The translations under genes were made by a program, and so were the position numbers. From the NCBI GenBank assembly GCA_031258695.1, contig JAIRMM010000040.1, forward strand, positions 1 to 49,261: a stretch of DNA of 49,261 nt. The letters run 5' to 3'. The notes under the pieces are model-generated. The model did not search any database. It had not been told where the DNA came from and saw only the letters and a list, made by a program, of their open reading frames with translations. The DNA is from Puniceicoccales bacterium. GTDB taxonomy: Bacteria; Verrucomicrobiota; Verrucomicrobiia; Opitutales; JAIRKQ01. Shown here one piece after another: positions 1 to 41,574 of this stretch (position 1 is its first letter; every line of letters begins with the position of its first letter).

Positions 1-84
1 GTTTTCAAAACTTCCAGTGTTTCCGCCTACCGAAGGCAACGATGGCCTACCAGGACCACTTCCAAAATTTCCGAAAAAATTCAT
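1..84 (-). CDS. 5' end of an unidentified gene that runs off the left edge (Gly-rich N-terminus)
   Basis: ATG at 82-84 on the minus strand is preceded by AGGAGG (plus-strand cctcct, 89-94) with a 4-nt spacer. The frame is open to the window edge. Only 28 codons are visible (MNFFGNFGSGPGRPSLPSVGGNTGSFEN) and no family is recognisable. Confidence 0.4.
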   Translation of the reverse strand, partial: MNFFGNFGSGPGRPSLPSVGGNTGSFEN

Positions 85-175
85 TTTTCCTCCTTTGTCT
101 AATTATGTGGAGGCACATGGTATATAATTCCGAAAAATGTCAATGCTAAAATGATACCTGTCGAAAAATACTAGC

Positions 176-202
176 GGGGGTCGGCGGACGGAGTCCAACC
201 CC
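176..202 (-). terminator. Possible intrinsic terminator after the aldehyde dehydrogenase gene
   Basis: On the minus strand a GC-rich imperfect hairpin (GGGGTTGGAC-TCC-GTCCGCCGACCCC) is followed, after 6 nt, by ATTTTT. The stem has an internal mismatch or bulge. Confidence 0.35.
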
Positions 203-233
203 AAACCTTTGCAAAAAAGAAAATCGCAATGGA

Positions 234-1562: not shown

Positions 1563-1653
1563 AATTGTCCTTTTTTAATGCCATATGTCATTTGTTTCCT
1601 ATTATCAGCCATATAATATGAAGAATTTCACTTTACCGAAAATCATCAACGAA

Positions 1654-3072: not shown

Positions 3073-3398
3073 TTTTTCTGCATTCTGCGCTTCTTTTCAA
3101 TAAAATCGATCATTAAATGATTTTTCCATCACAATACTTAAATCGGGGAGTGGACGGAGATTCGACTACGAAATTATGGGTGAGAACATGGGCATCACCA
3201 AAAACTTCGATGCCGTCGATGGTTACGTTAGTTTTCTTGCCTGCCTATGCTCGGCCCAAATTGTTCGAATCCTAGAGCTTATTTCTCCCTAGCGGTGCAA
3301 CATTCGTAGGAGAATTCAAACCACACAATTACAAAATTTCCAAAAAAAGACTTGAATTTTGCTTTGAAACTTTATATGAGTTTGACCTCAAAAAAATT

Positions 3399-18600: not shown

Positions 18601-19220
18601 ACGTCACCGGCGGTGGAGATACCAAAGGCTTCGGCGGTGGCATCTTCTACCGTTTTGACCTCCATGGATCAGAAAAAGGTCACCTTTATGGAGAAGGAAC
18701 CGCACACGTCGGAAAAGTTAGTTACAACTTTGGGAGTTCAGACATAGCCGATGCCGCTGGAAGGAAAGCGACATACTCATCCGAAAGCACCTATTACGGC
18801 TTTCACGGGAGCGTAGGATATATGGGTGCAATCTCGGATAATGCCCATTGGGACCTCTATGGAAAGTATTTCCTGACGCATAAAAAAGGGAAAGATGCCA
18901 CTCTGTCAACGGGCGAAAAGATCTCTTTTAAAGATGCTAATTCCCAACGGGCGGTTGCTGGTTTGAAGCTTGCTCGATTCGTTGGCAACACCACAAAAGT
19001 GTACCTAGGTGGAGCCTATTCCTACGAGTTTGCGGGAAAAATCAATGCCCAGATACAAAGCCTAGACGTCGAAGCCCCTTCTCTCCGTGGATCCACGGAA
19101 ATTCTAGAAGTTGGCATTGCAAACAGATGGAACGATAACTTCATCGACCTTGCTATCCAGGGCTACGTCGGAAAACGCAGCGGTGTCTCCGCAACCATCT
19201 ACCTGGAACACAGCTTTTAA
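15636..19220 (+). CDS. Autotransporter (type Va secretion): repeat-rich passenger and C-terminal beta-barrel translocator
   Basis: 1,194 aa, with AAGGGA SD before the ATG. A long N-terminal leader contains RRRSVLRSTVIGALLLLCSSFLTPISSVHG. The passenger consists of about 48-aa repeats. The C-terminal ~280 aa show alternating aromatic/Gly strands (GGGIFYRFDL, YYGFHGSVGYMG, VYLGGAYSYEF) and end in YLEHSF. Confidence 0.8.
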   Translation: MGINIRTNGRGTLSTIKKVLEAGSTDNSKTMGEGIKKCPFWKNNIKGHMARLHGWWSDIFKKILSPVKGIGGLFCHRKKTGPAVRRRSVLRSTVIGALLLLCSSFLTPISSVHGTNLEVVGTKVFKKGFFSSEEIPLTPESNIGDQNDIDMLRVHDGNMEVNNISLERMSLSGGDRGRSGVVAKDSISVKGKMTYGTDVSLTAGKDISAGFMECQHGNVSLTAGKDISMGIMYHYPHGNVSMTAGKDISMEALKGKGSERERTEIRMEAKNISVEKDIYHVNNIHLKADEKTGQISVGGNLMGDCSGGVVMVASKVSVDGNINERGARTGNITAANSISVKGDMNYQSNNVSLQAGEIFVGKDATFVNHDGEDTNIVVTNSISAKGSMKLAGDNASLKAKTVSVGKDMTFEGHSGGVDVVAEDLISADENMKLLGSRNTNGNVFLHAGKVFVGKDMTLEGRSGGVDVVAKDLISVEGNMKLLGGKNTNGNTSLIADFVFVDGNMTLEGRSGRASVVAEDSISVKGNMKLLGGNGNDGGVTLRSNTLVVGNMIGNANKKNTANITLTKRNGALNFDVKDLIVNENCHAKISLDGTEAWNRATGDSSTGVHFQKLTLRSGSTFDGIRTANNARHTSFNTYIFQGKDITFEGDFSGSGKLLNFQMPADIGNAPMVTVTGGAFLKGSRINVAIDGGTPILSEGSRIILMKANTMETQDIPLTSDASPDSLFTDGDGKRLSTGAATQGETKQDNVSTVDSIYNAATNVANSLKNTAGNAANGLKNFIGGNNGTSETGTGETETQPNGNNGTSANYANESLANYSNESLITETDGTQSGTAQDHILSINNAGTSSGSKGPEITVMQGVTMQYPYSLSVDGGALSMEIAGNPTLAPHTKAFSEGAIAAVGAVNRAIDFVADAGIQNFMEQGRIFTAFSGGMSRYQSGSHVDANEFAALIGCGKRFETSMGKFTAATFCEGVFGNYKTHNTFAGIGDVTGGGDTKGFGGGIFYRFDLHGSEKGHLYGEGTAHVGKVSYNFGSSDIADAAGRKATYSSESTYYGFHGSVGYMGAISDNAHWDLYGKYFLTHKKGKDATLSTGEKISFKDANSQRAVAGLKLARFVGNTTKVYLGGAYSYEFAGKINAQIQSLDVEAPSLRGSTEILEVGIANRWNDNFIDLAIQGYVGKRSGVSATIYLEHSF
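16230..16385 (+). repeat. Three tandem 60-63-bp coding repeats in the autotransporter passenger
   Basis: gtctccctgacagcaggaaaagatatatcc recurs at 16230, 16290 and 16353, with one substitution in the third copy. It encodes VS(L/M)TAGKDIS. Confidence 0.9.
16854..17285 (+). repeat. Three tandem 144-bp (48-aa) coding repeats in the autotransporter passenger; more diverged copies lie upstream
   Basis: Copies start at 16854, 16998 and 17142 (gacatgacg(t/c)tcgagggcc(a/g)cagcggtggtgtcgatgtggtggcg...). They encode DMT(F/L)EG(H/R)SGGVDVVA(E/K)DLIS..NMKLLGG.NTNGN. Confidence 0.9.
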
Positions 19221-19292: not shown

Positions 19293-20279
19293 TCATCTGA
19301 AGTGGCGATTTTCATATTTTTTTGTAAAAAATCTTTCACACATATCCCCTAGGTCCTGCGGCGTCGTCGCCCGACGAACACAATGGGAAAAGTCCCCCAA
19401 AGGATCCACGAAATCGGCAATTGGAATGGCATATTTTTTTAGGAATGAGGTTTTTTGAAAATCCGTAAGGGCAGGTTTGGTGGGAAAGTTTTGTAATTTT
19501 TCTATGAGATTGAGATAGTCTTCGCCGGTTGGGATAAAAATTTTAGTTTTGTTGGTTAATTCGTCAATCTGACGAAATATCCACGGGTTAGCTATGGCCG
19601 CTCGCCCAATCATTATGCCATCGGCATTGGTTTTTTTGACGACATTTACGGCTTCCTGGGCTGTTTTTATGTCACCGTTGGCAATTACGGGGCAATTTAG
19701 GGCAGCCTTGGCAATGTTTATGTATGCGAAGTCAACGGGTTCACCATACATTCCTTTTACGGTTCGCGCATGCACATATACCGCAAACAGCCTATGCCGT
19801 GCTAGATGGCTTAAAATAATGTCAAATTCCCGAGGGCTTTTATAGCCAATGCGAGTTTTTACGGAAATTGGAATGTTGGTATTGGCAGATATTATTGAAA
19901 TGATATCGTCGATGGTACTTAATTCCGTTAGTAGGGTTCCTCCCACGCCCTTTCTCCCAATTTTTGGCATGGGACATCCACAGTTTAAGTTGATGGACTT
20001 AATTTTATGGTTTTGTAACATTTTTGCTATTCTTAGAAAATGCTCCGGTTCCTTCTCCAGCAATTGTATGCTCAAATCTGCCGTACTTTTTCTATTTTCG
20101 ATCAAATCTATCACGTCATTCGTAACGGTTGCCGTTGGGTGTACCCGTAAAAATTCCGAAATATATTCGTCGGGCTCCCCACAGTCGCACACTATGTCCA
20201 TAAAATGGCGTGTGGTCAGTCCTCGCATCGGTGCCAAACTCGTAAAAATTTTCCCCTGCCGTTGACCGCTAACACACAT
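19293..20279 (-). CDS. dus: tRNA-dihydrouridine synthase
   Basis: Motifs are LAPMRGLTTRHF, INLNCGCPMPKIGRKGVGGTLL, VKTRIG and IANGDI..GIMIGRAAIANPWIF. I prefer the ATG at 20279 (MCVSGQ...) over the TTG at 20306. Confidence 0.8.
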   Translation of the reverse strand: MCVSGQRQGKIFTSLAPMRGLTTRHFMDIVCDCGEPDEYISEFLRVHPTATVTNDVIDLIENRKSTADLSIQLLEKEPEHFLRIAKMLQNHKIKSINLNCGCPMPKIGRKGVGGTLLTELSTIDDIISIISANTNIPISVKTRIGYKSPREFDIILSHLARHRLFAVYVHARTVKGMYGEPVDFAYINIAKAALNCPVIANGDIKTAQEAVNVVKKTNADGIMIGRAAIANPWIFRQIDELTNKTKIFIPTGEDYLNLIEKLQNFPTKPALTDFQKTSFLKKYAIPIADFVDPLGDFSHCVRRATTPQDLGDMCERFFTKKYENRHFR

Positions 20280-20321
20280 AATAATCTTGAAATGCCGTTG
20301 ATTCAAAATGATATATGCAGC

Positions 20322-20822
20322 ATGTCAATCGTTAGAACCTTCGTCCTGTCCATGTGTTTACTTTTAATTGCAGCGGATATCCATTGCGGTCCCATCAGGC
20401 GAGGTGCCAAGAAACGTAATGTGATGATTCAACGTGTTTCAATTTGCCAACTTGGCGATGATTCGTTTAAAACGATTGGGGAATATTTTGGCCACAAAAA
20501 GGAACATCCATATTTTCGGTGCATAGCTCGTGACAATGAAAATATTCGGGCGGGCGCCTATTTTGTGGTTGGGTTTAATAAATCGATTACCCTATTACCC
20601 GGGGAGATATTTGTTAAAATTTATGTCCTAACGTCCCTGCGGGATGGTGTGCTCTCGTTCAAATGCAGGGTGCCCGACCATAGGCATGTCCTCGTCTCAG
20701 AAATATACTGCGGCATAACATCGATGCCCATGGACATTAGAAACCTCAAGGCATGGAAAGTGGAATTGATTGATAAAAATGACAAAGTCCTTTGCTCGCA
20801 ACAAAGCTATATGTGGCAATAG
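20322..20822 (+). CDS. Hypothetical secreted protein
   Basis: The ATG at 20322 gives a signal-peptide-like N-terminus (MSIVRTFVLSMCLLLIAADIHC). 166 aa, Cys-containing, with no recognised motif. The upstream part of the track ORF overlaps dus. Confidence 0.5.
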   Translation: MSIVRTFVLSMCLLLIAADIHCGPIRRGAKKRNVMIQRVSICQLGDDSFKTIGEYFGHKKEHPYFRCIARDNENIRAGAYFVVGFNKSITLLPGEIFVKIYVLTSLRDGVLSFKCRVPDHRHVLVSEIYCGITSMPMDIRNLKAWKVELIDKNDKVLCSQQSYMWQ

Positions 20823-20848: not shown

Positions 20849-23800
20849 TTAGGCAGCACTAAAAAATTCCACGGCATCGTCATATTCGCGGGGGTGGAGG
20901 GTTTGTACCCGTTTCAGAAAACTTACTTTCGTTTCCGGTGAAACGCCAACACGCGTTCGAAGCACTTTCTGATTGTATTCCGAAGAATTCAGATGGTGGA
21001 AATTGCCGTACAAAATGGCTAGATCGGCGGATGCTTCACGCCCTGCGTCTAATACACCTTTTTCGATGGTTACCAGTGGATTGGTGGATGTTGGAATTCC
21101 AGCGGCATTGAACATCCAACAATCCTTTACGTTCAAATCCGCCATGGCTTTACCAATCTCCTGGGCATCTTGGTCACTCAAAAACAACGTTTTAAATGTC
21201 TCCCCAGACCTATAAACCAGCGCAAATTGTGCATCTTTTCTCCGGGAATCATCCATCCACTTGACACCCTCCAGGTTTTTTGCAAGGTTAGCCGTAATTT
21301 GCACATCGTCCCTGAAAATATGAAAATCAGGTTTATCCGTAATACATTTGTCGGCAGACAGTATGGGAGGAAACCCTGGTCTTGCTTCTGCTCTTTCCGG
21401 AAAAATCAGGGAAGCAAATGTGGGAGCTTCGGCTAATATTCTAGCTTTGGTTTTATCAACCAATAAAGGGTTTTCAAAAAGAGGCAACAATTGCGACTCT
21501 CCTGACTCTCCTTCATCGCTTCCAGGATGATTATATCTTTCATTTAAAACAACCAGCAGTTCCCTATCGGAAAGTCCATTCTTCCGTGCCGCCGTTTGCA
21601 ACCTTTGATCCACTAAATCTATGGTAGTTTCGGGATCTTCCTTTTGACTTTCCAATATGGATTCCAATGTGGATCCTTCCCTAAACTCTTCCGATTGAAA
21701 GTCATCCATCATACTCTTTGCTCTTTCCGGCAATGATTTTGGAGGCTGCGGTGCATCACCTGTTGCCTGAGCGCTTTCTTCGGGTTGAACTGCCACCGAA
21801 ACATCTAAAGCCGGAGCAGGAGCATCGCCAGCGACCACAGCCGTCGTAGCCCTTGTTCTGTCCTCCAATGGTTTTGGAGGCTGCGGTACATCATCCGTTG
21901 CCCGAGTGCCTTCTTCGGATTGAGCTACCGCCGAAGCTTCATCGGGAGCAGGAGCAGGAGCTTCATCGAGAGCAGGAGCATCGCCATCGACCCTAGCCTG
22001 TGCGTTTAAAACATCCCAAGATGTTTCTTCCACAACTTTGCTACTATCCTCCGTGACCTGCTCCTGCTCTGTTTCTGTTTCTGTCTCTGTTTCTGTCTCT
22101 GTTTCTGCTTCTACTTCTGTCCCCGTATCAACCGCACTTTCCCAAACTGCGAAGTCTAAAACTTTTTCGGCTAAACTTAGTATTATTGCAGCCCGGACTC
22201 GAAATTCCTCAGCCATGCCCCTATCTACCTTCTTAATCTTTGCAAGGGTACCCTCGTAGTAGTTTTGCAAGGACTCATATGCTGGTTGTTCGGAATCAAA
22301 GTCACCATATAATTCCAACGGATCTGCTTCGAATGAAGAATATGTAAATTGTTTACATAGATTTAGTGTTTTCCGTTCTTGTTTTGATATTTTTTTCCCA
22401 TCATGCTTTCCGATGATTTCATGCAATCTTTCGAAAGTTATACTTTTTACACAATTGGATATTTGGGCTTTGTAAGATTTGTAGGTCTGTTTCGCTAGCA
22501 TGACCGATTGATTTTCTATGCAATGGGAACATATTTTTGTCATAGCCCCCACGGGGTCATCGCTTACATTCATACCTGGAGGTACTAAACCCTGCGGAAC
22601 ACATAGATCTACCGTTTGTGAATCCAGAAATTTCCTTGCACGCAAGATACCTTGCAATGCCGTTCTGATCGGAGTAGTGTCGGGGTTTACGGTTAATATA
22701 GCTCTGGCATTTTTATCCAAAGGCACGTCACATCCCGTACATCTCAATTCGTCAAAATATGTGAATGTTTCATTGATATGATCTTTCCCAACGACCTTTT
22801 CTATTTCTTCGAGGCTAGTATTTGGAATCGGACGGGGGTGGCTGCGATCATTCTTGGCCATTACAAAGAAAGACTCTTCTCCCGCCATCGTCTTTCCCAG
22901 GTAAACCACATGTTGTACATTCGAATCATCTCTGTAATAGTCTAATATATCGTTGGCGACTTCCTCGTTCGTCCTGTCTTTGAAAATTCCTCCCGCATCT
23001 ACCAGGGCACGCAAATTCCCAGAATCTGTCTCGTGGACAGCTGCATGCTCTCCTAGAATGCTGGACACCGTTGCCCCCGCTGGGGTTAATATTTTCGAAG
23101 CTCCCGTCTGGAAATCCTTTTGCCACTTCTGCACAATTTTACCTTCGGTCCCCAGCTCCAGGATAGCTTTATTGTCTCCCTGAAATGCGGAATGGTATGT
23201 TTGCATATTCCAGGGAGTTCCTGTACATCCAACGGATGTTTTGCTCATGTCTACCATCGAGATCGCATCGCATTCAAGCAATTCGGAATTATATTTTATT
23301 GTGTTTGCGGCTAACATTTTCACAAACGACATAAAATTTTTAGACTTTTTCTTCCCATTCAATTGTTCGGTTGCCTTATGGATTGCTGCATGCCGTTGTG
23401 CATCGGTCATCCTCTTGAGGTCGCTGAGTTTTCCGAAACCGCTGTCATCCCACAGGGATTCAAGTTGTTCTGCCAGTGATTTGGGCAACAATCCATCAAC
23501 GTACTTGTCAATTAGAGAAGTCATCTGGGACAGCTGAATACCATTGTGCAAAATGGCTGCGAAAAAGTAGTATGCCTGTTCATAAACATTACCAAATTCT
23601 CCGGAAGAAGGCGTACCTACTCCCTGGTATGGAATGACGGCTCCATCCTCCCTAAAACCGTAGTGGCGGTTGTATTCCTTCTTCGCGGCACCGTCTACGA
23701 TGGACAGCATACCTTTTTGCAGTGCAATTTTCTCCGCTTCCCTTCGATGACTTTGTTTTATATTTTCCCAAGCTTGTTTAAAAGTCGCACCCGGCTCGTT

Positions 23801-26800
23801 GGCCCCAAGCATAAAATTTCGAAAATCGTTTTTGTCTATCGAACCGTCCAACGCTTGAATTTGCTCAAAGCATCTATCGATAATTTTTTCCTTGAATTGA
23901 TTGACGGGCGTTTTCCCATCTTTTTCAGCCCCAAATTTATCATTACAAAATGCATCATATAACCCAGTATCTTCCGTGACAACATCCAGCATCGACCCAA
24001 TGACATCAATTTGGGAGCTGGCGAGTGATTTCCGCGTACCACCGGGGAAATTTACGGACTTTGTTATGTCCAGATTCAGGTCTATTTCGTCTAAAAGTTG
24101 TACACAATTTTCCTTTACTTCTGATAGTATATCCGCCAGCTGTTTTGCCCGTGCCATGGCCGCGGGATCTCCGCCTTCCATTGCCAATCGGCTTGTCCTT
24201 ATGAATTCCAACTTGATAGCTCTAAGGGTGGGGGCTTGGATTACCAGGCATCCTCCCCCATCCTTAGCCCGTTTAAGCTTTCTCACTATTCCCGATAGCT
24301 TGTTACTATCTTGCAAATCCGATTTGCTTTCATCGATGCTGATAACTTCCTGGGAGTATCTACTCTCTTGAAATAGTCTCAAATTCCCCAGCATGGCAGT
24401 GTATTGGGAAGGGTGGCAGACAAATAGTGGTACCTTGTGCTGTAGGCTTATGCTATGGGCCAGCTGGGAAAGAATAACACTCGTTTTCCCACCCCCCATC
24501 ATAAGTTGAAAAGTAACACCCGTCTGTTCATTGTTTGCCTCGTTTGACTGGAGTTGGGCCGTTACATTTTGGATAATGCTAGCTTGGGCTCCTCTTACTC
24601 GAAACCCTACTATATCCTCGAAGACCAATGCTTCCATATTTGTCTCTGCATCATAGGTCCTTACGCTTTCATATGCCGTGATCAGTTGGTCCTTTGCCAG
24701 GAGGAAATCTTTTTGCTCGGGGGTAAGATTCGTTGCCCCATGGGCAGGAATTTCATGGTCATCATTCAAGAGAATTTGTCCCTTAGCCCGTACATTTTCA
24801 ACGGCAGCTTCCAGCTGTTTCATGGATCGTATGGCCGTGGAAGCTTGCAACAGTTGTCGGGTAAGATTAACGATCTCCTTACAATCTAAAATTGTGAATT
24901 CTGGATTGATTTCTTGGAGAATCTTTATGGATTTTGACCAGTCCCCATTCGGGTCAGATGGGGCACAAACCAAAGCTTTCCTTGCATCATCCAACGTGGG
25001 GGTCTTGGCCAATTTCGTTTTGCGCAAACTGTCCATCGTTTTGGAACATGTGGTAAGTTTTTCTACCAATTTCCCCTGAAATGTACCCTCGTGCTCACTG
25101 TAAATTTCATCCCTTTTGTTGGTTGCCGCTTGAATTTGGGCAGCTATGCCAGCAATCGTTGATTCTATTTGGGATTTTCCTGTGCCTTCGTCCCTAGTAA
25201 AACTTTCGGGACTAATTTCGTACAACTCACCGAGCGCCCTTGCCCTCAGGTCCTGGGATCCTGCCAGGGACATTTCTTCGTTGTACCTAGCCAATTCTTT
25301 TTTTGCCGTACTCTCGTATTGGGAAACCCCCTGCCTTTCATTCGATAAAAATGATCCCTTTTGTCCGTTAATCGCATTGGCCAAATCAAGCAATCCTGCC
25401 CTGAATTCCGAGTTAATCTGCGGAGCAGTTTGGCCACGGGAGGCTTCGGTGGCCGTAGCTATTTCTTCTTGGCGCTTTTTCTTAAATTCTAAAATTAGTT
25501 GCCTATCGTTTTTGTTCAAAGCTCCATGGGATTGGATTGCCTCTTCATCCAACTGGACAATTTCTAACAAGAGGTTGAATTTCCAGGCATCAACAGTTGC
25601 ATCTGTTTCTTGTTGATTACCTGCACCTTCGACGGAAGGTGGGGTACTAGTTTTCGGTGCTTCAACGGGTTTCAGTATGTTTTCATTAATTAACCTTCTG
25701 ACCTGATTTTCTCCATCTAAAGCTTCCGAATGTTTACTCGCCACAGACTGACCGTTGAGAAAATCTTCTATTTCAGAAATATACACTTTTCCAATACTAC
25801 CTATGATGACCCCATTTCCCTCTCCACCATCGGTGAGCTGCGGCAAGGCCATGGTATCCCTAAATCTTATGTAAGCTGCCCGTTCCCGATCACTTAATTC
25901 GGAATCTCTGCGGATAGCCTCATCACTTCGGCAGCATTTTGTCAAGACTTTTTCCCTCCGCTCGACGGAAGATTCTAGGAGTAGGGCAGTCTCCCGTGCT
26001 TCTTGCCTAAGCTTTGCCAACATCTCCCTATTCCTTGTGGGCAATACGGATGCAAACTTACTGGCTTTGGCGAAGGAGGGTTTCCCTCCCGGCTTATAGT
26101 ACACTATTTCGTGGTCTTTTGAGTCCTTCGCGACTTTGGTAAAATGTTTCGCGTGGGTTTGAACTCCAAGTTCTTCCACGAGCATTTGATGTTTTTGCTC
26201 AAACAATTTTAATAACCCGTATTCCGGCATTTCAGTCAGTATCATCCCTTCCCCGAAAGCTATAAGCTTCATCCCTGCTTTCAGTGTCGCAGGAGCTGCT
26301 TCTAATGCTTGATTCATCGCGCCTATGATTTCTTCCACAATGACCAGCTCGTTTTCCTTGGAAAGATTGACCTCCATCGTAGAATTTTCTCTAGCATCTA
26401 TCAACGATTGGTAGAGGGAGCTCATTTGCATAATTAGGTCGAAACTATCTTCAAAGTTAACGGTACCATCTTCCTTTCTAGCCAATAAAAGATTGCGAAA
26501 ATTGTAAGGGTTTGATTCGAGCAATAGGGTGATAATTTTAAAAGTGGCCAATTTTTCTTCAAGGATTTGATCCGCTTTTATTGTAAGTACGTTCCCTTTT
26601 GTTGCATCGGTAACGAGCGGACGAAAGGCAAGTTCTAGGAGTGCACTGTTTCTCCCGGCGACCACCTCCCTCATATTTATCTTATTTAAAATATCTAGAG
26701 TCTGTTCCCACCTTCCTGATCTATGTAATGCGTACACCAGTATCATTCCCGCTGCTTGATAGTCGCTGGAGGATAGGTCGAAGCCGGTGACAGCGTGAAA

Positions 26801-29800
26801 CCCAATTTCCAAAACATCCTGGCAGAGAATGGGTATTTTTTGCTTTGTCGCATTATCGATGGACAAAGAATCGATAAGGTTTTCATTGTTTATCAGGATG
26901 AACTTGTAGTCGCTCGGCTTATCCTTTGACCGCAAACAAATATAATTTAACCCGCCAGTGAGCGGACTGGGCACCGGAGGTTTTGATAGCACATATTGTT
27001 CGTTGCTCGCCAAATGCAATTCCCCGTCCTCTCCTCGATTGAATTGTAACACTTGATTATTATAATGCAGACCGGGCATCACGCAGGAAAGAACTTCGTT
27101 CGTATCAGGATTGATTGTCTCCAAGACATCGGTCTTCGTTGTGCCCCCGCAAGAAAGATTAGCCAAGAGCAGACTACCGCTAGAATACTTGCCATTCGTA
27201 CCGTGGTGTGGGGTTTTATACTCACGCATATCCCCATCTGGGGTGCATAATTTACCGTTTTCCAGCATAAATACTGGCTTATCCAAGGACTTTGGATCGT
27301 AGAGATAGACTTTTGCACATGCCGTATCTGTTTCTTCGACAAATGGCAAAAAGCGGGAAATCATTGAATCTGTTGCCGTCAGTTTTTTCCCAGGAGGAAG
27401 TGGTTTGGGTGTCACTAGGACTCTACCATCCATTGTTACTCTGTTGGTAAGGTTATCTATGGTTATTTTCCCATCCACGGTACTGGTGTCACCTTCTACT
27501 TTTACCCTGGAACGGATATTGGTACGGTCAATGCCAAGCTTGGATAATATGGGATGTTCCTCATTCTTTACTTTTACATGTTCCTCCGGATGTATCCCAT
27601 TGGTCAGGCGTACAAAATTGTTAAAATCTATGCTAGCTTTGATTTTGTTATCTCTGCCTTTGATTGTTATGAGTTTGTCATTAGCCGTCACTGGGGCATC
27701 TTCGTATCCCTGTTGCTCTGCATACCGCTCCCCAATTACTTGAAATGTCTCTGGTGTCAATTTACCTGCTTGGTCAACTATGAAATTTCTCAAAGCTTCC
27801 AACGGAACTCCCTCGAACATGTTCTTTATGCCAGAAGAATCTTCCGGATCTCGCTCAAGAAGCATATCGCTCGCCCCAGCCATTTCTGGCCAGATCATCA
27901 TCTTGGGATCCGTACATTTTAATATCTCATCGGTTGTTAAATCTTCTCCCCGGATCATTTTTTTGCACAAAACGCAGGCAAATTCCAGCTCTTCGTTTAC
28001 TGTGCCAACCGGTGAAATTTCTTTGTCAAAAACCTCGCCGTTGAGATCGGGTCCTCCGGCTCCTTTTACCACCCCACTTAGCTGCCTATGGAGTGATGCA
28101 TAAAATTTATACTTTTGCATGGCTTCCTCCGTTTTGACCGGATTCGGCAAGGTTTCAAGGGCTGTTTTAAAAAATTGATCGGCGAGGCGCACAAATTGTT
28201 CACGGGTTGTTCTGTCTTTTAGGGCTCCGGCCAGCGCTTCGGGGTTATTTGCATCCCCACATAGCAATTTGCAAAACATCCTTTGCATAGCAAGGTTGTC
28301 AAAAATGTTGGCGTTGCCTGAGGTTTGTAGCCATGAAAGCATGGCTTCTGTCTTTTGTACAACATTTCCATTGGGAGGCAAATGGCAATGCTCTAAAAAT
28401 GGGAACCGTTTGGCATGTTTTGATTTCGCAATATCTCCCTGGGAGTTGTCATTTAAGAACCCACAAATTTCTTGGTAATCATTTTGTAATTGTTCCCCAA
28501 ATGAGACATTTTTTATTACCACCGGCTCCTTATTGTCCTGCCTGGGAAATGCTACGCCATCCTTTGATTTTTCATCCAAGCTAAGGAGCATATAGGCAAA
28601 CCCATTGCCCGCAGACTCGGAACGTCCTAGACCCCCAAAACAGTCTGGTGATAACAAAAAAATCTCCCTAATGGCACTACGCGTATCATTATCGAACGAC
28701 GATAATAGCGGCACTACGTCTTGATAACTCTCTATGGAATTTCTTTCATTGAACAAAGCGTTCATTATTTCTTCAGATTCATGATGATCTCTTTTAATCC
28801 CATACCCTTCCCCATATTTTTTATAAATATCCGCTCCTAATTTTATGAGCTTGTCATAAATTTCCTGTTTATCCTCGGGCACGGTGATTCCATTTCTTCT
28901 ATTATATTCCGTATACGCCACGGCCATTCTAAAAAAACCCCCAATGTTTTCTAGGGTTTCACCTATGTCTTTGCCTTGCAGTGCCCCAAGGGTCCCATCA
29001 TGGTCTGATATGAGTTTTTCAAACTTCCACGCACTGGCGAATCCCATGGTCAAACGAGCAGCCTTTTGACTGCTAAGTTTCGCATTAGCCTGCTGAAGGA
29101 ATGCGGGAACATTGTCACAGACTTGTATGTTGTGTCCCTCTGAAATTTGTAGGGTGCTATCTTGGGTATATGTGGTACTAGCCTTAGCAAGGTCACGTGC
29201 TCTATCATCCTTACACGACGACGGGACTACGGCTGCCGGATTTGCCGCTAGGGGAGTAATTGCTTCGTTTACCCGTGATAAATATTTGGATGCCAACTCC
29301 GTACTGATCTTCCCAGATGCTTGCAAAGACAAAATTCTTTGTTGCACATCCCTACCTAGAGCATTAAGGACAACCGTGTGCTGTTCCAATAAGCATAAGG
29401 TTTCTCCTCTTTCCATTTTGGATTTAATATTTTCCAAATGGGCAACGCATTCACCTATTTCAAACGTGGCAACAAGTGCTTCCCGGGGAGAATTTCCTTT
29501 CGTGGCATATTGCAAGGCTTGTAATAGTTCAAATTTTAAACTCGTCTGCTTCTTTCCTCCGCCAGACTTGATCAAGACCATTTTCTCCTGGGGAACTTCC
29601 TTTGCTGGCTCTTCGCCAGCACATATTTTCCCCAAATCAGTTTTTATGTCTTCAAGCGAAGATTCGGAGTTGCTTGGATCAAATTTGTGTTTGAGGTCAA
29701 ATAGCTGAAATGCATTGACATAATCACCGGAATCCATCTGAATACCACCATGCGTTTCCAATGTTTTGGGTTGCGTGGTAAATTTTGTAACTTCCAAACT

Positions 29801-30532
29801 CCCTTTTTCATTTTTCCTGATCAGGAGAGCGTTAAAGTTCTTTTCTGCCTGAAATTCCTCTCCAGCACATTCCATTATTACCACCATTGGTTTATTTTCA
29901 TTCGCACATGCCTGCAGATGTTCCAACGTCAAATTTTCAAGGCCGTCAACTTTAGAAATGTTTAATTCTTTAAAAATTTCTCCAAAAACACCATCAATGC
30001 CTTCCCTAATTCGCTGTGGTTGTCGTAGCATGTTTTCCCCACGTAAAAATTCCCTGAGGTGTGAAATTGAACAGTCGATTGGTTCCGATTGGTCTACGTT
30101 GGTAAAATCGCATTTTGGGGGCACTTCTTCGATTTCCTCGGGTACTTCCGAATTTTCTGGGATGGACTCCCCAATGCTTTCGAAAAATTCTTCTATCTCT
30201 TTTCTAAGACTTTGATTTGTTTCATCTGCACTAGATGCAAGTTTGTGATGTATATCTTTCAACCCTTGTTTAAATTCTCCTAGCAAATCATCAATGCCGG
30301 AATTTCTGCGCAAGCACCATAACAGAAGCTTTTGGGGTAAAATTTTAAATTTAATCCATCCACCCCAACATCTGCGTTCTTCTAAGATTTTATGCTGGAT
30401 CTTGGTTGCTGTCATCTGCAAGTTATCATATCCCGCCACAGATCGTATGTCAGATAAACCCGAGAGTTTACTTTTTGCTGCGCCAGCCAATTGAAAAGTT
30501 TGTTCTATGAAATCAAGGTTTGCTATGGGCAT
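20849..30532 (-). CDS. Giant 3,227-aa protein with a central SF2-like P-loop NTPase core (reminiscent of DUF3638/DUF3645), an acidic disordered linker and an unassigned C-terminal domain
   Basis: A single uninterrupted ORF with an ATG start (MPIANLDFIE). Walker A is MMGGGKTSV (aa 2011-2019, nt 24476-24502). Walker B/DExD-like is LLDEIDLN (nt 24080-24091). Downstream motifs are SVGCTGTP, LVDAGG, FDELRCTGCDV and QGILRARKF. There is no signal peptide. All plus-strand ORFs inside it are short shadow ORFs. Confidence 0.85.
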   Translation of the reverse strand: MPIANLDFIEQTFQLAGAAKSKLSGLSDIRSVAGYDNLQMTATKIQHKILEERRCWGGWIKFKILPQKLLLWCLRRNSGIDDLLGEFKQGLKDIHHKLASSADETNQSLRKEIEEFFESIGESIPENSEVPEEIEEVPPKCDFTNVDQSEPIDCSISHLREFLRGENMLRQPQRIREGIDGVFGEIFKELNISKVDGLENLTLEHLQACANENKPMVVIMECAGEEFQAEKNFNALLIRKNEKGSLEVTKFTTQPKTLETHGGIQMDSGDYVNAFQLFDLKHKFDPSNSESSLEDIKTDLGKICAGEEPAKEVPQEKMVLIKSGGGKKQTSLKFELLQALQYATKGNSPREALVATFEIGECVAHLENIKSKMERGETLCLLEQHTVVLNALGRDVQQRILSLQASGKISTELASKYLSRVNEAITPLAANPAAVVPSSCKDDRARDLAKASTTYTQDSTLQISEGHNIQVCDNVPAFLQQANAKLSSQKAARLTMGFASAWKFEKLISDHDGTLGALQGKDIGETLENIGGFFRMAVAYTEYNRRNGITVPEDKQEIYDKLIKLGADIYKKYGEGYGIKRDHHESEEIMNALFNERNSIESYQDVVPLLSSFDNDTRSAIREIFLLSPDCFGGLGRSESAGNGFAYMLLSLDEKSKDGVAFPRQDNKEPVVIKNVSFGEQLQNDYQEICGFLNDNSQGDIAKSKHAKRFPFLEHCHLPPNGNVVQKTEAMLSWLQTSGNANIFDNLAMQRMFCKLLCGDANNPEALAGALKDRTTREQFVRLADQFFKTALETLPNPVKTEEAMQKYKFYASLHRQLSGVVKGAGGPDLNGEVFDKEISPVGTVNEELEFACVLCKKMIRGEDLTTDEILKCTDPKMMIWPEMAGASDMLLERDPEDSSGIKNMFEGVPLEALRNFIVDQAGKLTPETFQVIGERYAEQQGYEDAPVTANDKLITIKGRDNKIKASIDFNNFVRLTNGIHPEEHVKVKNEEHPILSKLGIDRTNIRSRVKVEGDTSTVDGKITIDNLTNRVTMDGRVLVTPKPLPPGKKLTATDSMISRFLPFVEETDTACAKVYLYDPKSLDKPVFMLENGKLCTPDGDMREYKTPHHGTNGKYSSGSLLLANLSCGGTTKTDVLETINPDTNEVLSCVMPGLHYNNQVLQFNRGEDGELHLASNEQYVLSKPPVPSPLTGGLNYICLRSKDKPSDYKFILINNENLIDSLSIDNATKQKIPILCQDVLEIGFHAVTGFDLSSSDYQAAGMILVYALHRSGRWEQTLDILNKINMREVVAGRNSALLELAFRPLVTDATKGNVLTIKADQILEEKLATFKIITLLLESNPYNFRNLLLARKEDGTVNFEDSFDLIMQMSSLYQSLIDARENSTMEVNLSKENELVIVEEIIGAMNQALEAAPATLKAGMKLIAFGEGMILTEMPEYGLLKLFEQKHQMLVEELGVQTHAKHFTKVAKDSKDHEIVYYKPGGKPSFAKASKFASVLPTRNREMLAKLRQEARETALLLESSVERREKVLTKCCRSDEAIRRDSELSDRERAAYIRFRDTMALPQLTDGGEGNGVIIGSIGKVYISEIEDFLNGQSVASKHSEALDGENQVRRLINENILKPVEAPKTSTPPSVEGAGNQQETDATVDAWKFNLLLEIVQLDEEAIQSHGALNKNDRQLILEFKKKRQEEIATATEASRGQTAPQINSEFRAGLLDLANAINGQKGSFLSNERQGVSQYESTAKKELARYNEEMSLAGSQDLRARALGELYEISPESFTRDEGTGKSQIESTIAGIAAQIQAATNKRDEIYSEHEGTFQGKLVEKLTTCSKTMDSLRKTKLAKTPTLDDARKALVCAPSDPNGDWSKSIKILQEINPEFTILDCKEIVNLTRQLLQASTAIRSMKQLEAAVENVRAKGQILLNDDHEIPAHGATNLTPEQKDFLLAKDQLITAYESVRTYDAETNMEALVFEDIVGFRVRGAQASIIQNVTAQLQSNEANNEQTGVTFQLMMGGGKTSVILSQLAHSISLQHKVPLFVCHPSQYTAMLGNLRLFQESRYSQEVISIDESKSDLQDSNKLSGIVRKLKRAKDGGGCLVIQAPTLRAIKLEFIRTSRLAMEGGDPAAMARAKQLADILSEVKENCVQLLDEIDLNLDITKSVNFPGGTRKSLASSQIDVIGSMLDVVTEDTGLYDAFCNDKFGAEKDGKTPVNQFKEKIIDRCFEQIQALDGSIDKNDFRNFMLGANEPGATFKQAWENIKQSHRREAEKIALQKGMLSIVDGAAKKEYNRHYGFREDGAVIPYQGVGTPSSGEFGNVYEQAYYFFAAILHNGIQLSQMTSLIDKYVDGLLPKSLAEQLESLWDDSGFGKLSDLKRMTDAQRHAAIHKATEQLNGKKKSKNFMSFVKMLAANTIKYNSELLECDAISMVDMSKTSVGCTGTPWNMQTYHSAFQGDNKAILELGTEGKIVQKWQKDFQTGASKILTPAGATVSSILGEHAAVHETDSGNLRALVDAGGIFKDRTNEEVANDILDYYRDDSNVQHVVYLGKTMAGEESFFVMAKNDRSHPRPIPNTSLEEIEKVVGKDHINETFTYFDELRCTGCDVPLDKNARAILTVNPDTTPIRTALQGILRARKFLDSQTVDLCVPQGLVPPGMNVSDDPVGAMTKICSHCIENQSVMLAKQTYKSYKAQISNCVKSITFERLHEIIGKHDGKKISKQERKTLNLCKQFTYSSFEADPLELYGDFDSEQPAYESLQNYYEGTLAKIKKVDRGMAEEFRVRAAIILSLAEKVLDFAVWESAVDTGTEVEAETETETETETETEQEQVTEDSSKVVEETSWDVLNAQARVDGDAPALDEAPAPAPDEASAVAQSEEGTRATDDVPQPPKPLEDRTRATTAVVAGDAPAPALDVSVAVQPEESAQATGDAPQPPKSLPERAKSMMDDFQSEEFREGSTLESILESQKEDPETTIDLVDQRLQTAARKNGLSDRELLVVLNERYNHPGSDEGESGESQLLPLFENPLLVDKTKARILAEAPTFASLIFPERAEARPGFPPILSADKCITDKPDFHIFRDDVQITANLAKNLEGVKWMDDSRRKDAQFALVYRSGETFKTLFLSDQDAQEIGKAMADLNVKDCWMFNAAGIPTSTNPLVTIEKGVLDAGREASADLAILYGNFHHLNSSEYNQKVLRTRVGVSPETKVSFLKRVQTLHPREYDDAVEFFSAA
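21737..21990 (-). repeat. About 135-bp tandem duplication encoding the Pro/Ala/Glu-rich linker of the giant protein
   Basis: ttttggaggctgcggt(g/a)catca(c/t)c(t/c)gttgcc(t/c)gag... occurs at 21737 and 21872. The two copies encode Q(S/P)EE..(R/Q)AT.D.PQPPK(P/S)L(E/P).R. Confidence 0.85.
22066..22120 (-). repeat. In-frame hexanucleotide tract encoding the ETETETETETETEQEQ run in the giant protein
   Basis: The plus strand reads ctctgtttctgtttctgtctctgtttctgtctctgtttctgcttctacttctg. The translation is AETETETETETETEQEQ. Confidence 0.9.
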
Positions 30533-30728
30533 ATGGATCCTTTTTGATGTTTAAACCTAGCATAGCATACATCCCATTACACAATTGTCAATTTTTAAAC
30601 ATGCTTCGGTCTGGTTTTCTCCCGAAAAGCATATAATTCAACGGAGATGGTTCTTTTTTCGATGATTGATGCCAGATTGCAGCTAAGTTTCGGCTCGCCA
30701 TGAAAAATTTTATCATTTTTCTGGGGAC

Positions 30729-31955
30729 ATGGGTAAAGTCTTTTCAAATACCAAAGTGGCAAGAAAAACATTCTTCTTTGACAATTGGCGGTGTTTCTGT
30801 TCCGGATTCATGGATCCTTTGCCGGAAAGTCTTGCTTTGGTTATTGTCCTTCGGATGTTTCGGGCCCCAATTTGGATAAAGTCTCTCATATTTGCCTCAG
30901 GTTTCATGGGAAATTTCCTTACCCCCCTGACTCAATCTTTGGTAGCACGGCAAAAACGATATAAAACCATGGATTTTAGTACAGCCTATTGGTTCATCGT
31001 TTCATTCTTGGTCTTTGCTTCAACTTTTGCTACATCGGTTGTGTCATTTTCGATCCTAATATCCTTTGCCATAATTTTTTCCAAACAACCAATTCCCCTT
31101 ATGGAAGATGTCTATGGCCAAAATTATTCACCCCAGGAACGGGGTGGTCGGCTAGCCATTACGCTCAACTTGTTACTATTATCCACCATAGTTTTTGGAC
31201 AGGTAGGGGGAAAATTGATGGATTTAAATTTACAAAACTACAAACTGGTGCTTCTCTTTGTGTCACTGGCGGCGATGGGAACAGCCCTATCCTTTTCTAA
31301 AATTCCTTCCAGGATCCTTCCCGCAGAAGGGGGAAAATCAATGGCTTCCAGTGTCAAAATAATTTTTACGGACAAACAATTTGGCATGGCCCTCCTTTGG
31401 TGGTCGTTATCAGGACTTGGCATACAAATAATGGGGCCCCTACGGACAGAGTACCTAGTGGACAGTACGAATGGGATAGGTGCTTCGAACGCATTTACGG
31501 TCCTTATATCCATAACTATTCCCATGGGATTTAGGATTTTGAGTACCTTCGTCTGCGGCCAAATTTTCCACCGGTTCAATTTTATTGCCATAAAACTAGT
31601 GGTTAACCTGTTTTTAATGGCCAGCGTCTTGCTGTTTTTTAATACGAAGATAAAATTTTTAGTTGCCCTTGCATCCGCCTGTTCCGGCATTGCCCGCGGC
31701 GGAGGTGAAATAATTTGGTGCCTGTGGGTTACCAAAATTGTACCAAAGGAAAAATTTAGCCTATATATGAGTCTCAACGTTGCCGTTACGGGACTGAGAG
31801 GGATGCTATCGCCCTTCATAGGATATGGTATTCGCCAACATTTGTCATTGGCCCAAATGAGCTACTTTTCGGCCACACTCGTACTAATTTCATCCTTCGG
31901 TTTTCTTTCATTGATCAAACATCCGCGTTTTACCACAATGTCAACAGCAGAATAG
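30729..31955 (+). CDS. MFS-type transporter, substrate unknown
   Basis: 408 aa with about 10-12 hydrophobic helices throughout and a mid-protein loop. It is divergent from the giant gene. The start codon is uncertain; alternative Met codons are at aa 28 and 43. Confidence 0.6.
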   Translation: MGKVFSNTKVARKTFFFDNWRCFCSGFMDPLPESLALVIVLRMFRAPIWIKSLIFASGFMGNFLTPLTQSLVARQKRYKTMDFSTAYWFIVSFLVFASTFATSVVSFSILISFAIIFSKQPIPLMEDVYGQNYSPQERGGRLAITLNLLLLSTIVFGQVGGKLMDLNLQNYKLVLLFVSLAAMGTALSFSKIPSRILPAEGGKSMASSVKIIFTDKQFGMALLWWSLSGLGIQIMGPLRTEYLVDSTNGIGASNAFTVLISITIPMGFRILSTFVCGQIFHRFNFIAIKLVVNLFLMASVLLFFNTKIKFLVALASACSGIARGGGEIIWCLWVTKIVPKEKFSLYMSLNVAVTGLRGMLSPFIGYGIRQHLSLAQMSYFSATLVLISSFGFLSLIKHPRFTTMSTAE

Positions 31956-32127: not shown

Positions 32128-33684
32128 ATGAGCGATACTGACACAATGCCGGAGTTTGGCAAAATGAGAAAGTTCTTTTTTCCAATCTATGGTTTCGAGG
32201 TGAAAAAAGCGTTACCAATGGGGTTTATGTTTTTTTTCATCCTGTTCAATTACACATGCCTAAGGAACATAAAAGATTCCATGGTAATCACAGCGCCTAA
32301 TTCGGGAGCGGAAGTCATTCCCTTTCTAAAGGCGTTTTTAGTCATGCCTAGTGCCATATTATTTACGCTGATTTATGCCAAGGGTAGTGATGTTATGAGT
32401 TGTGAAAACTTGTTCTATGTAACCATTGGATTTTTCATAATATTTTTTGGATTTTTCGGATTCGTAATCTATCCTAATTTGAGTTTTTTTCATCCGGCAG
32501 TAGATACCGTTGCACGTTGGCAAAATCATTATAGCCAATCCGTGCGTTGGCCACTGGCAATAGCGGGAAATTGGACATTTGCACTGTTCTATGTGATGTC
32601 GGAGTTGTGGGGAAGCGCAACACTGTCCCTGCTGTTTTGGCAATTTGCCAATCAAATATGTAAAACTTCGGAAGCTAAAAGATTTTATGCATTTTTTGGA
32701 TTACTTTCCCAATTTTCACTATTACTGGCGGGGGAGGTTGCCGATTACATTGAAAAATTTTCTCACAATGTTCCCAAAGGGATTGATCCTTGGGCAGTTT
32801 CCCTACGATGGTCAATGGGAATAGTCGTAGTATCCGGCATTGTGCTTATGATAATCCACCGTTGGATTTATAAAAATGTATTAACCGACAAACGGTTTTA
32901 CGATAAACCGGAACTTCCAGGGGCAAAAAAGAAAAAAAACAAGATGGGATTTTGGCAAAGTATGGCGTTTATGGTAACTTCTCCATACCTGATTTTGATA
33001 ACTGCGCTGGTAATTTGCTACGGCATCGGCGTCAACGTGATCGAAGGATTGTGGAAAGGACAGGCAAGATTGCTGAATTCCAGTACCGGTGCATTTAATG
33101 CATTCATGGGGCGCTATTCGTTCTACACGGGAATAACAACGATGATTGTGATGATTATCGGCGGAAATATTTTGCGTAAATTTAGTTGGTTTACGGCTGC
33201 CGCTATTACACCGATATTGACTTTGGTCTCCGGTAGCATATTTTTTTCCTTCGTAATATGGAGAAATGATTTTGTAAACATACTTGCTTGGTTTGGAACA
33301 AATCCCGTAGTCGTAGCAGTTTTTGTCGGGGCTGTAATACTAATTCTAGCGAAGGCAACCAAGTATTCTCTCTTCGACCTAACAAAGGAAATGGCCTATA
33401 TTCCACTCGACGATGAAATGAAAGTGAAAGGTAAGGTTGTGGTCGAAGTCATCGGTGGACGGTTGGGCAAGGCAAGTGGAGCATGGTTACAATCTGGATT
33501 ATTGATGATCTTTGGGCTAAACGTATTTGGCCATGGGAAAAAAGTCGAACTGATAAACCTGGCGCCCTACCTATTTGGGATACTAATTACGATTTGCCTA
33601 CTGTGGGTACTCGCCGTACGAGCACTTAGCAAAAAAATTGAGGCGGTAACAGCTACGGCCTCCAAGCAAGCAGCAGGCGAGTAA
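32128..33684 (+). CDS. ntt: ATP/ADP translocase (nucleotide transporter, NTT/Tlc/Npt family)
   Basis: 518 aa. The N-terminal half closely matches my recollection of chlamydial Npt1 and rickettsial Tlc: FGKMRKFFFPIYGFEVKKALPMGFMFFFILFNYTCLRNIKDSMVITAPNSGAEVIPFLKAF, NWTFALFYVMSELWGSATLSLLFWQFANQI and SEAKRFYAFFG. Confidence 0.9.
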   Translation: MSDTDTMPEFGKMRKFFFPIYGFEVKKALPMGFMFFFILFNYTCLRNIKDSMVITAPNSGAEVIPFLKAFLVMPSAILFTLIYAKGSDVMSCENLFYVTIGFFIIFFGFFGFVIYPNLSFFHPAVDTVARWQNHYSQSVRWPLAIAGNWTFALFYVMSELWGSATLSLLFWQFANQICKTSEAKRFYAFFGLLSQFSLLLAGEVADYIEKFSHNVPKGIDPWAVSLRWSMGIVVVSGIVLMIIHRWIYKNVLTDKRFYDKPELPGAKKKKNKMGFWQSMAFMVTSPYLILITALVICYGIGVNVIEGLWKGQARLLNSSTGAFNAFMGRYSFYTGITTMIVMIIGGNILRKFSWFTAAAITPILTLVSGSIFFSFVIWRNDFVNILAWFGTNPVVVAVFVGAVILILAKATKYSLFDLTKEMAYIPLDDEMKVKGKVVVEVIGGRLGKASGAWLQSGLLMIFGLNVFGHGKKVELINLAPYLFGILITICLLWVLAVRALSKKIEAVTATASKQAAGE

Positions 33685-41473: not shown

Positions 41474-41574
41474 GCGAGGCGAAAGAAAATTTCCCCATCT
41501 TCCGATGTGAAACAAGGTATTAAATTTTTACAAAAAAATTGCTATTTTTGTATTTTTTTGTATTTTTTTTCCAC

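Follow-up and report, generated by a model that had tools for sequence, protein, structure and literature searches.

The occurrence of a single open reading frame (ORF) of 3,227 codons in a Puniceicoccales bacterium raises the question of what such a giant protein is, whence it came and on what it might act. The gene lies on a contig of 49,261 nt (assembly GCA_031258695.1, contig JAIRMM010000040.1), the whole of which was analysed and is referred to below as the window. Our analyses place the protein in the DUF3638/DUF3645 family, give its core the fold of superfamily 2 (SF2) motors with the catalytic residues conserved, and find the gene conserved throughout its Puniceicoccales clade. Taken as a whole, the giant is a genuine, conserved, soluble and very acidic protein, quite probably a divergent ATPase of this family in which a family unit running from about amino acid (aa) 1954 to 3227 carries a motor that would remodel a polymer, while the N-terminal region would do the targeting.

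A clade-conserved gene with a DUF3638 core

A sequence-only reading of the window had recognised six motifs of a two-lobed SF2 ATPase and had likened the forms TGTP and RCTGxD to DUF3638/DUF3645. Family membership proved right, as the whole protein scores 54.6 bits against Pfam DUF3638 (PF12340), whose gathering score is 31, and 59.2 bits when searched as a tile, the match (aa 1959-2186) spanning profile positions 3-218 of 225. The assignment of TGTP and RCTGxD to DUF3645 was mistaken, and the tiled Pfam search that brought DUF3638 above its gathering score gave no match to DUF3645. The six motifs all stand where that reading had placed them, at aa 2011, 2146, 2433, 2510, 2593 and 2627. In family alignment A2, which joins the giant core of about 800 aa to ten distant relatives, Q1983, K2016, D2148, E2149, T2439, D2512, G2600, D2602 and Q2627 are invariant and R1980, R2631 and R2633 nearly so, and the conserved columns map to the SF2 Q-motif, Walker A, Walker B, motif III, lobe-2 Asp, motif V and motif VI. 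Every family motif form (R..Q, GxGKT, DExD, [ST]GT, TxGxD and Q...R.R) is intact in the giant, with motifs Q, I, II, III, V and VI in this order and with the catalytic Lys, Asp-Glu and Arg in place. Membership of Snf2 or ResIII was not found: the helicase lobe-1 family ResIII (Pfam) reaches 18.5-21.2 bits, below its gathering score of 22.5, and hhalign against RapA is not significant.

The predicted structure leads to the same fold class. The AlphaFold2 model, which covers aa 1940-2800 and uses the family alignment (predicted local distance difference test, pLDDT, 80.4; predicted template modelling score, pTM, 0.73), orders the core as a RecA-like lobe 1, a helical insertion, a lobe 2 and a 50-residue helix that runs into a helical bundle. 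When this model was compared with the PDB by Foldseek, all 30 matches at E <= 1e-3 were SF2 motors, and the two tandem RecA-like lobes are thus supported both by a model of pLDDT 80 and by PDB fold matches; the NTPase fold foreseen for this part of the protein was recovered by Foldseek and by the profile match alike. SecA chains make up the six best matches (E = 5e-7) with the highest template modelling (TM) scores, 0.34-0.41, followed by DinG/CasDinG, MDA5, RapA and INO80/SWR1. PDB sequence and profile searches with the whole giant, the core profile and the clade profile returned nothing significant, and hhalign of the family core against Escherichia coli SecA, DinG, UvrB, RhlE and RapA gave weak local motif matches only. 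Among predicted viral structures, the model comes closest to DUF3638 proteins of Klosneuvirinae, with E values as low as 1.6e-22 and a TMq of at most 0.60.

Comparison with known motors brings out likenesses on several sides. Like SecA, the giant has a two-lobe SF2 motor into which a domain is inserted between motifs II and III, a lobe 2 followed by a long helical scaffold, and a motif III with a TGT core; it differs in having no significant sequence relation to SecA, in being 3.6 times larger and in having no link to SecYEG, and SecA-specific domains were not detected in it. DinG/XPD, MDA5/RIG-I and Snf2/RapA resemble the giant in their two-RecA-lobe fold, their motif order and their arginine-bearing motif VI, whereas FeS, Arch, CARD and Snf2 protrusions were not detected in the giant and the scores remained below thresholds.

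The reading frame itself is unbroken on the minus strand from an ATG start, at the very coordinates first read from the sequence, and given the base composition of the window a frame of 3,227 codons would stay open by chance with a probability of about 1e-83. Intact orthologous ORFs of 3,139-3,247 aa are present in one JGI contig (L001), whose product P0001 is a full-length relative with 67% identity, and in three Puniceicoccales metagenome-assembled genomes (MAGs); these orthologues are 54-70% identical, pairwise identity among the intact copies being 57-70%, and further partial copies exist. When prokaryotes were scanned with one genome for each species, the gene turned up in five Puniceicoccales MAGs, a result obtained with clade-biased patterns and therefore not equivalent to absence elsewhere. 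Three of the five have intact frames of 3,139-3,170 codons and a fourth copy ends at a contig edge; the flanks are conserved in part. Conservation among orthologues is highest over the ATPase motifs (87-93%) and drops to 27%, with many indels, in the Pro/Ala-rich spacer, a profile in keeping with purifying selection on a multi-domain protein rather than with a chimera.

The fifth copy departs from this pattern. In the MAG Puniceicoccales Cc175_bin120 (JAIRKQ010000004.1; L006:4520-10481) the orthologue is split into three frames covering aa 1-580, 584-1685 and 2895-3227, and aa 1686-2894, and with them the entire ATPase motor and acidic linker, are missing; this copy is either a decaying gene or a metagenome misassembly. 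It is the observation that would favour an artefact at our locus as well, such as a chimeric assembly, a pseudogene in decay or a frame that is open by chance. Such an artefact is hardly credible in view of the intact frames in four other genomes or contigs with their conservation peaks on the catalytic motifs, of the minute chance of an open frame and of the promoter-like and ribosome-binding-site-like sequences that precede the start; the same orthologues counter the chimera or frameshift that the sequence-only reading had named as a possible refutation.

No conserved antisense gene was found opposite the giant gene, in keeping with what had been claimed: stop-free antisense stretches reach at most 203 aa, mostly in one phase, and are lost in the most divergent orthologue. 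The protein has neither a hydrophobic N-terminus nor a transmembrane segment (maximum KD19 = 1.36), as expected from the earlier statement that a Sec signal peptide is lacking, and it has no internal repeat. It is very acidic (net charge about -111), and the GC content of its gene equals that of the remaining window (0.441 versus 0.432). An exact-sequence look-up of the protein returned no record; one of its Puniceicoccales orthologues is named 'DUF3638 domain-containing protein' by NCBI.

Regions around the two lobes

Between motifs II and III the model places a mostly helical insertion of about 225 aa. SecA carries its preprotein cross-linking domain between the same two motifs, and the giant's insertion thus occupies the same topological place. 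The DUF3645 signature also falls here, although Pfam DUF3645 (PF12359, gathering score 25 bits) gave no match to the whole giant, to its tiles (E <= 5) or to a 71-aa excerpt (E <= 10). One bacterial relative, P0006, does score on this profile, with the match 'EIAIPYIANDVPSKRSQFASP' at aa 2806-2826 inside its insertion domain, and the counterpart in the giant is VIPYQGVGTPSSGEFG (aa 2299-2314), with the signature PY..PS..F; the Y, G and P columns of the equivalent segment are nearly invariant. Nor does DUF3645 correspond to the 'GFSGT' motif III, the Pfam match of P0006 being the AIPY..PS..F segment.

Beyond the core, two elements recur throughout the family. The sequence-only reading had taken the core for the sole recognisable part of the protein and the roughly 270 aa after the acidic linker for a stretch matching nothing; both claims have to be given up, as the linker and the last 170 aa or so are family-wide. 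In 126 of 146 family members (86%, score >= 6) the core leads straight into an alternating (E/D/Q)-x segment, a pattern seen in 3.7% of background windows, and the giant's DTGTEVEAETETETETETETEQEQ is an extreme case, with an alternation score of 9 at aa 2802-2825. The C-terminal module is found in 133 of the 142 family proteins long enough to contain it. A hidden Markov model (HMM) of this module built without the Puniceicoccales clade matches giant aa 3070-3136 at E = 5.8e-4 and P0001 at E = 1.4e-5, and hhalign gives E = 5e-5 at 68% probability, which together make for moderate support. In a model of aa 2740-3227 the folded C-terminal part reaches a pLDDT of about 80-90, and the acidic strand and the Pro/Ala spacer are unstructured or of low confidence. 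A PDB fold search with this linker and C-terminal model gave no match (best E = 0.87), and no Cys or His is invariant in the alignment of the C-module. A weak but recurring dodecin-like sequence match (E about 0.6) covers the last scaffold helix and the acidic strand (aa 2768-2836, positions 22025-22230); dodecins, small proteins of beta-alpha-beta-beta type, form oligomers.

The N-terminal 1,939 aa are conserved among orthologues in islands (aa 241-420, 661-900, 1321-1500 and 1741-1939). Tiled Pfam, NCBIfam and PDB sequence and profile searches found nothing in this region, and a profile of five orthologues recovered only clade members among 5.8 billion proteins, which bears out the earlier statement that the 2,000 aa or so before the core have no known match. 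Pfam DUF6606, the fungal N-terminal type, has no match in the giant, and comparison of its N-terminal region with those of fungal and Legionella type was non-significant by HMM, by hhalign (best E about 0.3) and by a shuffle test. The Legionella-type and fungal-type regions are themselves mutually related and collinear (hhalign probability 95.6%, E = 1e-8). Since the region matches no other family type, it has either diverged beyond recognition or been replaced. By eye, the giant's N-terminus had been likened to P0004 and to the 'GGHAM...NSGxG..YH...QRSGTC' module of Legionella-type members; this likeness was dropped, the shuffle z being about 0 and hhalign and HMM comparisons non-significant. 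In the Legionella-type module itself (P0005 aa 100-240 with 21 related proteins), G103, G104, W105, G111, H112, N131, G133, G135, H139, Q229, S231, G232, C234 and R237 are conserved at >=90%.

Features of the giant gene and its product in the window (positions in nt of the window; all on the minus strand)
Feature	Amino acids	Positions	Strand	Basis or remark
Promoter-like TTGACA-16 nt-TATGCT		30564..30591	-	about 32 nt 5' of ATG; putative, consensus match only
AGGA, likely ribosome-binding site		30538-30541	-	5 nt before ATG; putative, sequence only
Whole giant gene, 3,227 codons and stop	1-3227	20849..30532	-	ORF call; intact orthologues
N-terminal region	1-1939	24716..30532	-	Puniceicoccales clade-specific at sequence level
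RecA-like lobe 1 (Pfam DUF3638 match)	1959-2186	23975..24658	-	Pfam, alignment, model
Q-motif-like R..Q, RVRGAQAS	1978-1985	24578..24601	-	R1980 nearly invariant, Q1983 invariant
Walker A MMGGGKTSV	from 2011	24476-24502	-	lobe 1
Walker B LLDEIDLN	from 2146	24074-24097	-	lobe 1
Mostly helical insertion, motifs II-III	2187-2411	23300..23974	-	model secondary structure
DUF3645-equivalent segment VIPYQGVGTPSSGEFGNVYEQA	2299-2320	23573..23638	-	aligns with Pfam match of P0006
Motif III SVGCTGTP	2433-2440	23213..23236	-	T2439 invariant
RecA-like lobe 2	2480-2646	22595..23095	-	alignment, model
LVDAGG	from 2510	22988-23005	-	lobe 2; D2512 invariant
Motif V FDELRCTGCDV	from 2593	22724-22756	-	lobe 2; G2600, D2602 invariant
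Motif VI QGILRARKF	from 2627	22628-22654	-	lobe 2; Q2627 invariant, R2631 and R2633 nearly so
Helical scaffold after lobe 2	2660-2792	22157..22555	-	opens with 50-residue helix; model
Alternating acidic linker DTGTEVEAETETETETETETEQEQ	2800-2836	22025..22135	-	alternation count; low model confidence
Pro/Ala/acidic disordered spacer	2837-2925	21758..22024	-	variable among orthologues, absent in other family members
Clade-specific helical region	2934-3050	21383..21733	-	model, pLDDT about 80
C-terminal alpha/beta module, family-wide	3057-3227	20852..21364	-	HMM, hhalign, model

Distribution and origin of the family

DUF3638/DUF3645 is a very large family, in which the giant appears, from its sequence motifs, as a catalytically intact motor of a bacterial lineage. 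The core profile retrieves 9,773 cluster representatives (50% identity) out of 1.84 billion, 4,488 of them at E <= 1e-30. Most family matches are 3,000-4,300 aa long, and in 108 of 166 family proteins the core begins at aa 1800-2200; that of the giant begins at aa 1954 and fits this architecture. The largely eukaryotic flavour suspected for the core is borne out by fungal giants, by giant viruses and by the literature, and the function was rightly called undescribed: the domain is mentioned in passing only, in connection with a microsporidian gene family, new Tetrahymena genes and fungal genome tables, and its mechanism is called undefined. Fungal giants combine DUF6606, DUF3638 and DUF3645, and one of them is named 'ubiquitinyl hydrolase 1'. 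A deubiquitinase was accordingly considered for the giant and rejected, as Pfam and NCBIfam reveal no cysteine-peptidase domain and the C-module is without invariant Cys or His. The N-terminal module of P0005 type resembles, by its conserved residues, a Cys/His enzyme centre and might underlie this label.

The fungal giants (with DUF6606) and those of ciliates, microsporidia and Klosneuvirinae are homologous to the window's giant over a core of about 700-840 aa and agree with it in the position of this core near aa 2,000 and in the acidic linker and C-module. The window's giant differs from them in being encoded in a bacterial genome, in lacking DUF6606 and a DUF3645 score, in its dissimilar N-terminal 1,939 aa and in an extra disordered and helical insert of about 250 aa between linker and C-module. 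The viral matches, taken from BFVD, comprise Hokovirus HKV1 (four times), Harvfovirus, Fadolivirus, Hyperionvirus and Yasminevirus; each of these Klosneuvirinae giant viruses has several DUF3638 paralogues, which makes the family common to protists, their viruses and intracellular bacteria.

Giant size, core, linker, C-module and a bacterial context are also common to the bacterial DUF3638 giants of Legionella drancourtii, P0006, P0009 and P0004. L. drancourtii has two paralogues of 3,509 and 3,954 aa; the N-terminal module of Legionella-type members, with its conserved H112, H139, Q229 and C234 (P0005 numbering), was not detected in the window's giant. P0006 contains ankyrin repeats, and chemotaxis and two-component genes are its contig neighbours. 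P0009 (L010:5368-22495, Logan SRR21362437_191) is a bacterial giant of 4,244 aa with a HECT-domain gene (1,460 aa) 10 nt downstream, and both genes sit among the bacterial housekeeping genes PheT, NDK and BipA. The giant's core is closest to that of P0004 (L007:3-16887, ENA ERZ23495397 scaffold_3467), with 26% identity. P0004 is preceded by a tandem paralogue of more than 2,276 aa that ends at the contig edge and agrees with it in core and C-module.

In an approximate neighbour-joining tree of 53 cores, where the taxon labels are fungal, Legionella and Puniceicoccales only, all 100 bootstraps join the Puniceicoccales proteins to P0004 and its paralogue, and the group lies on a long and deep branch apart from the fungal and Legionella-type groups. 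This deep position outside the fungi does not support a recent transfer from fungi. A phylogeny of the core had been proposed as a check on eukaryote-to-bacterium transfer; such a transfer is still plausible in general, but the core lies deep with P0004 and not inside the fungi. The distribution as a whole (eukaryotes, giant viruses, Legionella, contigs with ankyrin or HECT, Puniceicoccales) is the pattern expected of genes traded among residents of protist cells.

It is worth stressing what this locus can and cannot tell about the family. The analysis defines the family unit as motor, inserted domain, scaffold, acidic strand and C-module, and a bacterial member whose N-terminal region may have been exchanged offers a natural experiment for telling the motor from the targeting function. 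By itself the locus does not tell what the family does, and orthologues are already marked as DUF3638 in public annotation.

Possible substrates and host association

By analogy with the mechanics of other SF2 enzymes, ATP would bind between the two lobes, and its hydrolysis would close and open them, moving or remodelling a bound polymer, either protein or nucleic acid; target recognition would be supplied by the lineage-specific N-terminal region. The question then arises as to which polymer is meant. A nucleic-acid translocase or helicase that works within the bacterial cell and has no role in a host, be it in repairing DNA, handling the chromosome, remodelling RNA or warding off mobile elements, is suggested by the majority habit of SF2 enzymes, which act on nucleic acids, and by the weak sequence signals of DinG (Q-motif and Walker A, E = 7e-4) and ResIII (21.2 versus 22.5 bits), the best sequence matches obtained. 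A native-like base composition and the failure to find an export signal in the giant also agree with it. This proposal seems rather unlikely to us, however, as the protein carries a strong negative charge, neither a nuclease nor a DNA-binding domain was found in it, and it matches neither a PADLOC defence model (E <= 1) nor a phage family (PHROGs). Moreover, the known bacterial carriers of the family are Legionella, the contigs with ankyrin or HECT and the translocase-bearing clade, with no free-living carrier identified, though most relatives are unlabelled metagenomic sequences.

Other features lean towards a protein substrate, namely the SecA-first ranking of fold matches, the topology of the insertion, the HECT neighbour and the strong negative charge. 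On these grounds one may picture a SecA-like polypeptide motor that grips, threads or unfolds proteins, possibly tied to the ubiquitin pathway, with the inserted helical domain as a substrate clamp. In its favour, SecA chains hold the six best PDB places and the top TM scores, the insertion between motifs II and III and the long helix after lobe 2 recur in SecA, a HECT ligase gene lies 10 nt downstream of a bacterial relative, and eukaryotic and viral relatives are named 'ubiquitinyl hydrolase 1' in databases. The TM scores are nevertheless low, with DinG/XPD and MDA5, which also have inserted domains, close behind; a SecA sequence signal is absent (hhalign E = 0.08, no Pfam or NCBIfam SecA match); and the 'hydrolase' name is an automatic label, with no peptidase family found in the giant by Pfam or NCBIfam. 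We therefore regard a polypeptide motor of this kind as unlikely on present evidence. It is tempting to go one step further and to see in the DUF3638 unit, with its SF2 motor, amphipathic acidic strand and C-module, a new SecA-like class of protein-remodelling machines acting on eukaryotic, possibly ubiquitin-linked, substrates and traded among protists, giant viruses and intracellular bacteria, to which the Puniceicoccales clade, as probable protist endosymbionts, would have added a new targeting region of 1,939 aa, with delivery into the host by an unrecognised route; this wider proposal is improbable, and we offer it as speculation.

Returning to the divergent DUF3638 ATPase as such, whatever its polymer, the setting of the gene raises the possibility of a host-directed role. 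A TLC ATP/ADP translocase is encoded at 32128-33684 on the plus strand (E = 2.6e-175), as the sequence-only reading had reported. ATP/ADP translocases are a hallmark of energy parasitism inside eukaryotic cells, and the bacterium accordingly probably lives inside a eukaryotic cell. The translocase is accompanied by a gene for a major facilitator superfamily (MFS) transporter (30729-31955, plus strand), and this pair lies directly upstream of the giant gene and divergent from it; the same divergent MFS neighbour is found next to P0001 on the JGI contig. The host-association context further includes the two L. drancourtii paralogues, the ankyrin fusion and the HECT neighbour, and the distribution of the family, with its ankyrin-bearing and HECT-adjacent bacterial relatives, makes a host-directed role, as well as the idea of the giant as an effector, plausible. 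That the target belongs to the eukaryotic host is a tentative proposal, to which we give somewhat less than even weight; it follows from the probable intracellular life of this translocase-bearing bacterium and from the presence of the family in eukaryotes, giant viruses and intracellular bacteria with ankyrin or HECT.

Several points weigh against the interpretation we favour. Export of the giant is unsupported, as a signal peptide is missing from the protein and the window shows no secretion system. The GC content, which is like that of the window, and the deep branch of the core give no sign of a recent acquisition from a eukaryote. The motor-less copy of Cc175_bin120 may mean that the giant gene is dispensable. 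As to the class of substrate, the structural matches do not exceed a TM score of 0.41, and comparing profiles with those of E. coli SecA, DinG, RapA, UvrB and RhlE does not tell these motors apart. Finally, the literature holds no biochemical or genetic data for any family member.

The rest of the window encodes, among others, a dihydrouridine synthase, a [FeFe]-hydrogenase-like protein, BioA, BioB and ClpP. The hydrogenase-like protein (1654-3072, minus strand) resembles a [FeFe]-hydrogenase large subunit, has several 4Fe-4S domains and suggests an anaerobic lifestyle. Translocase and anaerobic metabolism together are compatible with an intracellular symbiont of an anaerobic eukaryote, and verrucomicrobial symbionts of termite-gut protists are known from the literature. 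Three large ORFs of the plus strand are without Pfam match (15636-19220, 1,194 aa; 41539-45594, 1,351 aa; 45991-48525, 844 aa) and show no similarity to the giant or its family. A smaller ORF of 205 aa (20205-20822, plus strand), which likewise lacks a Pfam match, converges on the giant gene and shares about 100 nt with the beginning of the dihydrouridine synthase gene (19293-20306, minus strand); L002 has an ORF equal to it in length and position (19477-20094).

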